A stretch of DNA of 64,000 nucleotides from Escherichia coli. Lineage in GTDB: Bacteria > Pseudomonadota > Gammaproteobacteria > Enterobacterales > Enterobacteriaceae. Below are positions 6,001-9,000 of this stretch, one piece after another; the first letter of the stretch is position 1; every line of letters begins with the position of its first letter. Made by a program: the position numbers. The stretch lies in the NCBI RefSeq assembly GCF_003018115.1, contig NZ_CP027457.1. One strand, given 5' to 3'.

Positions 6001-9000
6001 TGACTGCCTTTACCATCAGTGCCGCGTTTGCCGGTTTTGCCGGAACGCTGTTTGCTGCGCGCCAGGGCTTTGTCAGCCCGGAATCCTTCACCTTTGCTGA
6101 ATCAGCCTTTGTACTGGCGATAGTGGTGCTCGGCGGTATGGGCTCGCAATTTGCAGTGATTCTGGCGGCTGTTCTGCTGGTGGTATCGCGCGAGTTGATG
6201 CGTGATTTCAACGAATACAGCATGTTAATGCTCGGTGGTTTGATGGTGCTGATGATGATCTGGCGTCCGCAGGGCTTGCTGCCCATGACGCGCCCGCAAC
6301 TGAAGCTGAAAAACGGCGCAGCGAAAGGAGAGCAGGCATGAGTCAGCCATTATTATCTGTTAACGGCCTGATGATGCGCTTCGGCGGCCTGCTGGCGGTG
6401 AACAACGTCAATCTTGAACTGTACCCGCAGGAGATCGTCTCGTTAATCGGCCCTAACGGTGCCGGAAAAACCACGGTTTTTAACTGTCTGACCGGATTCT
6501 ACAAACCCACTGGCGGCACTATTTTACTGCGTGATCAGCATCTGGAAGGTTTGCCGGGGCAGCAAATCGCCCGCATGGGCGTGGTGCGTACCTTCCAGCA
6601 TGTGCGTCTGTTCCGTGAAATGACGGTAATTGAAAACCTGCTGGTGGCGCAGCATCAGCAACTGAAAACCGGGCTGTTCTCTGGCCTGTTGAAAACGCCT
6701 TCTTTCCGTCGCGCCCAGAGCGAAGCGCTCGACCGCGCCGCCACCTGGCTTGAGCGCATTGGTTTGCTGGAACACGCCAACCGTCAGGCGAGTAACCTGG
6801 CCTATGGTGACCAGCGCCGTCTTGAGATCGCCCGCTGCATGGTGACGCAGCCGGAGATTTTAATGCTCGACGAACCTGCGGCAGGTCTTAACCCGAAAGA
6901 AACGAAAGAGCTGGATGAGCTGATTGCCGAACTGCGCAATCATCACAACACCACTATCTTGTTGATTGAACACGATATGAAGCTGGTGATGGGAATTTCG
7001 GACCGAATTTACGTGGTCAATCAGGGGACGCCGCTGGCAAACGGTACGCCGGAGCAAATCCGTAATAACCCGGATGTGATCCGTGCCTATTTAGGTGAGG
7101 CATAAGATGGAAAAAGTCATGTTGTCCTTTGACAAAGTCAGCGCCCACTACGGCAAAATCCAGGCGCTGCATGAGGTGAGCCTGCATATCAATCAGGGCG
7201 AGATTGTCACGCTGATTGGCGCGAACGGGGCGGGGAAAACCACCTTGCTCGGCACGTTATGCGGCGATCCGCGCGCCACCAGCGGGCGAATTGTGTTTGA
7301 TGATAAAGACATTACCGACTGGCAGACGGCGAAAATCATGCGCGAAGCGGTAGCGATTGTCCCCGAAGGGCGTCGTGTCTTCTCGCGGATGACGGTGGAA
7401 GAGAACCTGGCGATGGGCGGCTTTTTTGCTGAACGCGACCAGTTCCAGGAGCGCATAAAGTGGGTCTATGAACTGTTTCCACGTCTGCATGAGCGCCGTG
7501 TTCAGCGGGCAGGCACCATGTCCGGCGGTGAGCAGCAGATGCTGGCGATTGGTCGCGCTCTGATGAGCAACCCGCGTTTGTTGTTGCTTGATGAGCCATC
7601 GCTCGGTCTTGCGCCGATTATCATCCAGCAAATTTTCGACACCATCGAGCAGCTGCGCGAGCAGGGGATGACTATCTTCCTCGTCGAGCAGAACGCCAAC
7701 CAGGCGCTAAAGCTGGCGGATCGCGGCTACGTGCTGGAAAACGGTCATGTGGTGCTCTCCGATACTGGTGATGCACTACTGGCGAACGAAGCGGTGAGAA
7801 GTGCGTATTTAGGCGGGTAATAACACGTTGATTGATAAGGAGTCAAAAGACTCCTTTGAGACAGGTGACAAATGTAAAATTGCCTGATGCGCTGCGCTTA
7901 TCAGGCCTACTGGGTGAGTTGCAATATATTGAATTTGCACGATCTTGTAGGCCGGATAAGGCGTTTACGCCGCATCCGGCATGAAACGATGAGTAATCTG
8001 TAGAGTTTGATTCAGACCTTCTATTTTTCCGCTTATCCGTGCCCCATCTCCCATTTTCCCTCACCCGTACCGTCGCCGCCTTGTCATCTTTCTGACACCT
8101 TACTATCTTACAAATGTAACAAAAAAGTTATTTTTCTGTAATTCGAGCATGTCATGTTACCCCGCGAGCATAAAACGCGTGAATTCGCGCATTCGGTACA
8201 ACAAGAGAGATAAACGATGAAACCGTTACATTATACAGCTTCAGCACTGGCGCTCGGACTGGCGTTAATGGGGAATGCACAGGCAGTGACGACCATTCCG
8301 TTCTGGCATTCTATGGAAGGGGAACTGGGTAAAGAGGTGGATTCTCTGGCCCAACGTTTTAACGCCGAAAACCCGGATTACAAAATTGTACCGACCTATA
8401 AAGGCAACTACGAACAGAATTTAAGCGCGGGGATTGCCGCATTTCGTACCGGCAATGCTCCGGCTATTTTGCAGGTTTATGAAGTTGGCACCGCCACCAT
8501 GATGGCATCGAAAGCCATTAAACCGGTATATGACGTGTTTAAAGAGGCGGGGATTCAATTCGATGAGTCGCAGTTTGTGCCGACGGTTTCCGGTTACTAC
8601 TCCGACAGCAAAACGGGCCACTTACTCTCCCAGCCATTCAACAGCTCGACCCCCGTTCTCTATTACAACAAAGACGCCTTCAAGAAAGCAGGATTAGACC
8701 CGGAACAACCGCCGAAAACCTGGCAGGATCTGGCGGACTATGCCGCAAAACTAAAAGCCTCCGGCATGAAGTGCGGCTACGCCAGCGGCTGGCAGGGCTG
8801 GATCCAACTGGAAAACTTTAGCGCCTGGAACGGTCTGCCGTTTGCCAGCAAAAACAACGGTTTTGACGGCACAGACGCGGTGCTGGAGTTCAACAAGCCG
8901 GAGCAGGTGAAACACATCGCCATGCTCGAAGAGATGAACAAGAAGGGCGATTTCAGCTACGTCGGGCGTAAGGATGAATCCACCGAGAAGTTCTATAACG

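Follow-up and report, generated by a model that had tools for sequence, protein, structure and literature searches.

Repetitive extragenic palindromic (REP) units and the bacterial interspersed mosaic elements (BIMEs) that contain them have been known since the 1980s, and the intercistronic REP pairs of malE-malF and hisJ-hisQ are the classical paradigm of mRNA stabilisation (Higgins, Newbury and colleagues). A BIME-1 element pairs one y unit with one z1 unit, inversely oriented and in single copy, across a long L linker that is conserved and often contains a site for integration host factor (IHF), while BIME-2 elements string z2 and y units, separated by a short S linker, into tandem arrays. 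BIME-2 elements bind gyrase. At the RNA level, REPs terminate transcription partially and in part through Rho, and they stabilise the message upstream; in the published view Rho acts beyond the REPs and the trimmed 3' end is then protected by them, and in tandem gene pairs split by a REP expression is biased to the upstream gene. In the yjdMN operon, REP325 is proposed to limit read-through and to protect the upstream message, and is in part a Rho-dependent terminator (bioRxiv 10.64898/2026.03.23.713779). Here we describe three REP sites in a 64,000-nt stretch of an Escherichia coli chromosome (RefSeq assembly GCF_003018115.1, contig NZ_CP027457.1), referred to below as the window, which runs from livJ to feoB. 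Site 1 lies after livF and before the ugpB promoter, site 2 between ugpB and ugpA, and site 3 between a 679-amino-acid (679-aa) open reading frame (ORF) and the convergent glpD gene.

All three sites are true REP/BIME repeats of the ordinary E. coli kind and are already known. It is highly probable that they also work as such repeats would, with sites 1 and 3 as BIME-1 elements of 3' untranslated regions (UTRs) and site 2 as an attenuator and stabiliser between two cistrons. Sequence inspection found six REP units in three inverted, tail-to-tail pairs, all extragenic and between annotated coding sequences (Table 1). The units are 30 or 35 nt long and follow the pattern GCCKGAT-GCG...CGC-TT-ATCMGGC with two unpaired bases in the stem; five of the six carry the foot tetranucleotide GTAG/CTAC, the exception being unit 2a of site 2. 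A hidden Markov model (HMM) built from the six units recovered all of them from the whole window (nhmmer, E 2e-8 to 2e-5) and no further significant REP copy. When a 300-nt query containing site 1 was searched against E. coli genomes it matched a median of 29 places per genome, which is an undercount and identifies a dispersed repeat. The Rfam scan of the whole window reached no REP family and returned only RyhB, so that Rfam cannot be used to decide REP membership. TnpA(REP), the REP-associated transposase, recognises and cleaves REPs; its gene was absent among the annotated features of the window.

The first-pass annotation of this DNA, made from the sequence alone, had placed paired REP units of opposite orientation after livF, between ugpB and ugpA and after the yzgL-family gene. 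The six units bear this out to within 1 nt, the gene map agrees with the context described, and the consensus scan that it had proposed, run here with the REP tail motif CTTATCMGGCCTAC at no more than one mismatch, gave five matches in 64 kb, all within sites 1-3, against a chance expectation of 0.03. The same annotation held that the palindromes mark operon boundaries. That is true of sites 1 and 3 but not of site 2, which is a boundary between cistrons inside an operon, and the marking is a positional correlation only. The sites were correctly named, though without a distinction between element types, and the K-12 catalogue has copies of them. All three elements occupy orthologous places in K-12, where site 2 is identical and site 3 shows several substitutions, including compensatory ones in the stems; the stems vary between strains. 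A preprint supplement lists REP258 (livF-ugpB) and REP256 (yzgL/glpD) at K-12 coordinates matching sites 1 and 3. From the numbering we infer that site 2 is REP257, a name unseen in the catalogue. No repeat features appear in the displayed K-12 RefSeq feature table.

Judged by its sequence, site 2 belongs to neither BIME-1 nor BIME-2 and is best called a simple or atypical REP pair; it is not BIME-2 because it consists of two 30-nt units, has no z2-length unit and no tandem repetition, and is present as a single copy. In the ugp mRNA units 2a and 2b pair with one another and form one 68-nt hairpin of -48.4 kcal/mol (range -48 to -49; z -9.2), with 24 consecutive pairs at its base. The hairpin ends 20 nt before the ugpA ATG and leaves the Shine-Dalgarno-like AGGA unpaired; the sequence CAGGAA before ugpA stands at a fixed distance from unit 2b in 19 aligned sequences (the window and 18 other genomes). 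No U-run follows the stem, which therefore does not qualify as an intrinsic terminator, and the C/G ratio downstream is 1.26.

Elsewhere in the window, the livK-livH spacer (4094-4140) has a GC-rich hairpin, CCGCCCG...CGGGCGG, directly past the stop of a binding-protein gene that likewise precedes genes for membrane subunits, a non-REP parallel to ugpB-ugpA.

By analogy with described REP pairs, site 2, which is inside the ugpBAECQ operon, would most likely serve as an intercistronic attenuator and stabiliser that keeps UgpB above UgpAEC. The hairpin would shield the ugpB segment from 3' decay, and the element would lower the amount of full-length ugpAECQ message, so that binding protein would exceed the membrane and ATPase subunits. 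The first-pass annotation had suggested differential expression of ugpB and ugpAEC, and this idea is plausible and agrees with the classical REP model. It is backed indirectly by the very stable hairpin, by a ugpB 3' end that maps within the pair, by the near-universal structured spacer described next, and by the general literature. A literature search for ugpB together with REP returned no papers, and the RepRanger supplements contained nothing on these genes.

For a survey across species, relatives of UgpB were collected from 80 Enterobacterales loci and one Aeromonas isolate, and the ugpB-ugpA spacer could be delimited in 79. A spacer of 49-314 nt was present in 79/79 Enterobacterales species; the other ugp junctions in E. 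coli overlap or abut. A structured domain of -15 kcal/mol or below was found in 74 of the 79 spacers, starting at a median of 7 nt past the stop codon. The median z of the spacer was -4.8, compared with -0.5, -1.1 and -0.1 for equal-length controls upstream of ugpB, inside ugpB and inside ugpA, respectively (Mann-Whitney P ~1e-17). What forms the structure differs among the 79 species. A REP pair occupies 22 spacers, in Escherichia, Citrobacter, Klebsiella, Lelliottia, Kosakonia, Buttiauxella, Cedecea and Pseudocitrobacter; a palindrome of the CCCTCTCCC type occupies 15, in Enterobacter, Phytobacter, Leclercia, Kluyvera and others; and another hairpin occupies 41. In 18 spacers, mostly of more distant genera, a hairpin is followed by a T-rich tail, as in an intrinsic attenuator. 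Within the alignment of REP-type spacers, hairpin pairing was kept in 80.6% of cells, compared with 31-45% when partners were slid.

Variation at the same position is also found within E. coli. The within-species survey covered 5426 complete genomes and counted an allele as matched at a query coverage of at least 80%. At site 2 the REP allele was found in 5104 genomes and a 155-nt palindromic-repeat allele, giving a 175-nt spacer, in 318, so that 5422 of the 5423 genomes in which anything matched have one or the other; no clearly empty ugpB-ugpA allele was found among these 5423. The 155-nt repeat is of the same type as the CCCTCTCCC-type spacers of other genera. It reads CCCTCACCC...GGGTGAGGG, and the copy in strain MN06021 (locus L007, 2328-2482, orthologous to window 9534-9630) reads CCCTCACCCTAACCCTCTCCC...GGGAGAGGGCCGGGGTGAGGG. 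It folds at -80 kcal/mol and is itself scattered over the genome, where it is found at a median of 3 places. A literature search for a name of the repeat returned only irrelevant papers; it may be the 'RSA' repeat. One could go further and propose that the ugpB-ugpA junction has been under long-term selection for any very stable hairpin just past the stop codon, so that REP pairs, the 155-nt CCCTCTCCC-type repeat and plain terminator hairpins would be interchangeable cassettes, exchanged in the course of enterobacterial evolution and still being swapped in E. coli (94% vs 6% of genomes), and that the E. coli duplex might also be cut internally, by RNase III or at a stalled ribosome. We regard this extended proposal as unlikely.

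Transcript-end and coverage data from K-12 bear on the proposed role of site 2. The 3' ends were taken from the Term-seq tables of Adams et al. (2021, eLife, supplementary file 1) and mapped to the window, where the 'primary' ugpB end falls inside the pair (Table 1). In the bicyclomycin data a region close to the 3' end of ugpB scores as weakly Rho-dependent (3591086, score 2.6), and coverage across site 2 without bicyclomycin shows no drop, being 47 upstream and 57 downstream at low expression. The bicyclomycin-sensitive region, with the 18 spacers that carry a T-rich tail, could be taken to mean that site 2 acts on transcription itself, by pausing or attenuating RNA polymerase, partly via Rho, so that fewer polymerases reach ugpAECQ. 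BIMEs have been reported as attenuators, and REP325 is in part a Rho-dependent terminator. The E. coli hairpin, however, has no U-run, the sequence beyond it has a C/G ratio of only 1.26, and the coverage without the drug does not fall at the site. We rate action through transcription as somewhat less likely than not.

The features of sites 1 and 3 follow the published definition of BIME-1 closely, and to judge from their sequence they are BIME-1 elements. Once one of the two is reverse-complemented they are collinear, in the order short unit, linker of 35-36 nt and long unit, and the 18-nt linker core CAATATATTGAATTTGCA is identical at both sites and in K-12. The labels y and z1 used here were given by unit length and loop. 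The linker of site 1 carries ATTCAATATATTG on the minus strand at 7922-7934, one mismatch from the IHF consensus WATCAANNNNTTR, and the same sequence is found in the linker of site 3. An exact consensus scan of the window gave 4 matches where 2.5 were expected, none of them in the linkers, and is uninformative. The linker DNA of both sites probably binds IHF, by analogy with other L linkers. The folds of sites 1 and 3 have z values from -2.5 to -4.6, depending on the strand.

Both elements sit in the 3' UTR of the neighbouring gene or genes, with the two copies in opposite orientation. Site 1 begins 60 nt past the livF stop, and site 3 is 51 nt from the stop of the 679-aa ORF and 63 nt from that of glpD, so that both are outside the class of REPs found within 15 nt of a stop codon. 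Transcription would cross the element and be ended by Rho in a C-rich tract just beyond it, and the folded REP RNA would then block 3'-to-5' exonucleases and leave a stable 3' end. Directly downstream of site 1, which has no U-run, the tract at 7982-8107 is a probable zone of Rho loading and termination. In K-12 the orthologous stretch, 3592439-3592564(-), appears in a list of in-vitro Rho-dependent signals and is 1 nt away from REP258. The tract directly downstream of site 3 on the minus strand has a C/G ratio of ~2.3, while that of the window overall is 0.91, and its K-12 orthologue is likewise a listed in-vitro Rho-dependent signal, adjoining REP256. Both tracts fit the published view of Rho acting beyond REPs. 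On the plus strand of site 3 termination might instead occur at the REP itself, where the short-unit hairpin is followed by G and TTTTTT (41367-41372); by inspection this makes it terminator-like for the 679-aa ORF. A simple terminator scan, whose stem model allows no bulges, called none of the REP hairpins; that it passed over the site 3 short-unit hairpin with its T-run is probably due to the bulged stem. The K-12 Term-seq tables call no livF 3' end. On the glpD side, ends are called both at a non-REP hairpin just past the gene and, for read-through transcripts, beyond the distal REP (Table 1). The role of sites 1 and 3 as 3'-end protectors and IHF sites is inferred from family membership together with this one end mapped beyond the REP.

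The two BIME-1 sites are polymorphic among E. coli strains. The site 1 allele was matched in 4629 genomes. The cassette fills a variable livF-ugpB slot (window 7821-8034) in the window and in K-12; the slot is flanked by conserved sequence, conservation resuming near 8035. In two inspected genomes without a match it holds a gene for a TPR protein (O157:H7 EDL933) and a phd/doc toxin-antitoxin pair (MN06021). A small non-REP hairpin lies between livF and the element (Table 1), and a similar hairpin with a full T-run is present in MN06021. Site 3 was matched in only 2094 genomes. The whole glgP-glpD interval is variable among E. coli, and one inspected genome has no BIME there.

Several observations weigh against the proposed roles. 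The site 1 query has no match at 80% coverage or more in 797 of 5426 genomes and the site 3 query in more than 3000, and this strain polymorphism shows that sites 1 and 3 are dispensable. The IHF consensus in their linkers is matched with one mismatch only and is not significant alone. In the REP-type spacers of ugpB-ugpA, the retention of pairing is not above that in column shuffles, which amounts to conservation and no covariation, and the retained structure could reflect conservation of the REP consensus instead of selection on pairing. Across the genome, a terminal REP does not go with a longer mRNA half-life. Finally, the ugpB 3' end falls within the 5' arm of the site 2 hairpin, 17 nt in, and not at the 3' foot. 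Because of this position in the 5' arm, a simple model of a stalled exonuclease barrier does not explain the ugpB 3' end.

An end within the stem invites two other explanations. First, the duplex could be a substrate of RNase III; its 24 consecutive pairs would be cut, splitting ugpB from the ugpAECQ message. Internal cutting of the REP-REP duplex would explain a 3' end within the stem, and within transcripts the intergenic regions are enriched for RNase III sites, with some candidate duplexes overlapping REPs. In many species, however, the two units differ in length and the duplex is interrupted, and we consider cleavage by RNase III very improbable as the function of the site. Second, site 2 could mainly lower the synthesis of UgpB. 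In the model of Liang, Rudd and Deutscher, the ribosome stalls during termination at a hairpin no more than 15 nt past the stop codon, leading to mRNA cleavage and rescue by tmRNA, and REPs less than 16 nt from a stop codon are described as down-regulating translation (Liang et al., 2015, as given by a citing source). The position of site 2 is a complication for the attenuator and stabiliser role in this respect: its hairpin starts 9 nt past the ugpB stop, close enough for a REP, as reported, to reduce translation of the gene before it. The median start of 7 nt across species agrees with such a mechanism, and the 3' end in the 5' arm could be the product of cleavage at a stalled ribosome. On the other hand, the binding proteins of ABC transporters are normally in excess, and lowering UgpB would oppose the expected stoichiometry; nor was ugpB found named in the accessible text on REPs. 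Stalling as the main function is somewhat unlikely.

It could also be argued that none of the sites has a local function and that they are selfish but neutral repeats, which the REP-associated transposase has scattered into untranslated spacers that tolerate them. REPs are bound and cleaved by TnpA(REP), some strains have sites 1 and 3 while others lack them and carry unrelated genes in these slots, a REP pair between malQ and gntT is partly collapsed in the window with no obvious consequence, and there is no covariation beyond conservation of the consensus. This explanation does not readily account for a ugpB-ugpA spacer that is structured in 74 of 79 species by at least three unrelated types of element, for the lack of a clearly empty allele of that spacer in 5423 E. 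coli genomes, or for 3' ends that map at or in the elements. We consider it somewhat unlikely and retain the reading of sites 1 and 3 as 3'-UTR elements and of site 2 as an attenuator and stabiliser.

Two further REP remnants in the window were missed by the first-pass annotation, whose list of three sites was right as far as it went. The single degenerate unit at 58625-58661 corresponds to K-12 REP253 in the preprint supplement. The palindrome at 56974-56996 looks like a collapsed REP pair; it equals K-12 REP254 minus the central 66 nt, a symmetric loss after which only the two REP heads remain, forming a 10-bp hairpin of -23.6 kcal/mol. The coordinates of these and the other features are given in Table 1.

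Table 1. Features of the three REP sites, their surroundings and the further REP remnants, in window coordinates.
Feature	Position	Strand	Sequence	Remarks
Small non-REP hairpin after livF	7837-7856	+	AAGGAGUC-AAAA-GACUCCUU	16 nt past livF stop; followed only by UUUGAG; -15.6 kcal/mol, z -3.6
Site 1, short z1-like REP unit	7881-7910	+	TGCCTGATGCGCTGCGCTTATCAGGCCTAC	30 nt; nhmmer E 2e-8
Site 1, L-type linker	7911-7946		core CAATATATTGAATTTGCA	36 nt
Site 1, long y-like REP unit	7947-7981	-	TGCCGGATGCGGCGTAAACGCCTTATCCGGCCTAC (- strand)	35 nt
C-rich, G-poor tract	7982-8107	+		C/G 2.28; directly downstream of site 1 BIME, liv sense strand
ugpB stop codon	9531-9533	+		9 nt ahead of site 2 hairpin
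Site 2, unit 2a	9543-9572	+	TGTCGGATGCGTTTCGCTTATCTGACCTGG	30 nt; tail CTGG instead of CTAC
Equivalent of K-12 'primary' ugpB 3' end 3590983	9559	+		26 nt past stop; LB OD 2.0, stationary
Site 2, linker	9573-9580		CATCGCGT	8 nt
Site 2, unit 2b	9581-9610	-	TGCCGGATGCGCTTCGCTTATCCGGCCTAC (- strand)	30 nt
ugpA Shine-Dalgarno-like sequence	9617-9620	+	AGGA	
ugpA start codon	9631-9633	+	ATG	
RyhB sRNA gene	18778-18842			only Rfam family at gathering score in window
Equivalent of K-12 Term-seq end 3563685(+)	41261	-		5 nt past distal REP, glpD strand; glpD read-through
Site 3, long y-like REP unit	41266-41300	+	TGCCTGATGCGGCGTGAACGCCTTCTCAGGCCTAC	35 nt
Site 3, L-type linker	41301-41335		ATTCAATATATTG (+ strand, 41313-41325)	35 nt
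Site 3, short z1-like REP unit	41336-41365	-		30 nt
Non-REP hairpin just past glpD	41389-41412	-		K-12 glpD primary 3' end 4 nt beyond (window 41385)
Collapsed REP pair, malQ-gntT (candidate)	56974-56996		TGCCGGATGCGATGCATCCGGCA	23-nt palindrome; K-12 REP254 is an 87-bp pair here
Single degenerate REP unit	58625-58661	-	TGCCCGATGCGACGCTAAAGCGTCATTTCGGGCCTAC (- strand)	22 nt past nfuA stop; HMM E 0.37 (weak)

The gene map was taken from the annotation of a near-identical enterotoxigenic E. coli (ETEC) genome. A 3.5-kb piece of the window is 100% identical to several O169:H41 ETEC genomes, and comparison of its first 50 kb with one of these genomes shows six base differences. The register with the near-identical ETEC genome NZ_LR882990.1 is lost from ~57103, within gntT, probably through an indel. 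Beside site 3, the 679-aa ORF is intact at 39175-41214 and has a PstS-like PBP_like_2 domain at residues 250-486; K-12 yzgL is the remnant of this ORF after a 1744-bp deletion. The RefSeq annotation of the near-identical ETEC genome splits the ORF into a pseudogene and a hypothetical protein. Apart from the REP sites, an ataR/ataT toxin-antitoxin pair is annotated between livJ and panM (window 1380-2180), and a RecQ-family helicase with a DprA-like gene between gntU and yhgN (window 24185-27483). We take both sets to be absent from these intervals in K-12.

The REP sites themselves have little discovery value. The ugpB-ugpA junction is nonetheless a clean natural experiment, in which one intercistronic position carries different structured repeats according to species and strain. 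It could help to establish whether selection acts on REPs as RNA hairpins, and whether stabilisation, attenuation or translational stalling dominates.

Among the described systems, the malE-malF and hisJ-hisQ pairs are the closest to site 2, which likewise comes right after a binding-protein gene and before the genes of membrane subunits and is an inverted pair forming a very stable hairpin. The 3' end of the upstream cistron maps in site 2, but inside the stem and not at its foot, and the role in ugp is drawn here by analogy. REP325 resembles site 2 in being a REP element between tandem genes of one operon; it differs in being a 12-hairpin BIME-2 array of z2 and y units, whereas site 2 is a single pair of short units. 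Site 2 is like BIME-2 elements in general in its short linker and in having its units tail-to-tail, but it has neither their z2-length unit nor their tandem repetition. Sites 1 and 3 are like BIME-1 (RIB/RIP) elements in every structural respect, each having one 35-nt and one 30-nt unit placed tail-to-tail in single copy and a 35-36-nt linker whose core is shared between both sites and K-12; their IHF motif is one mismatch off the textbook consensus.

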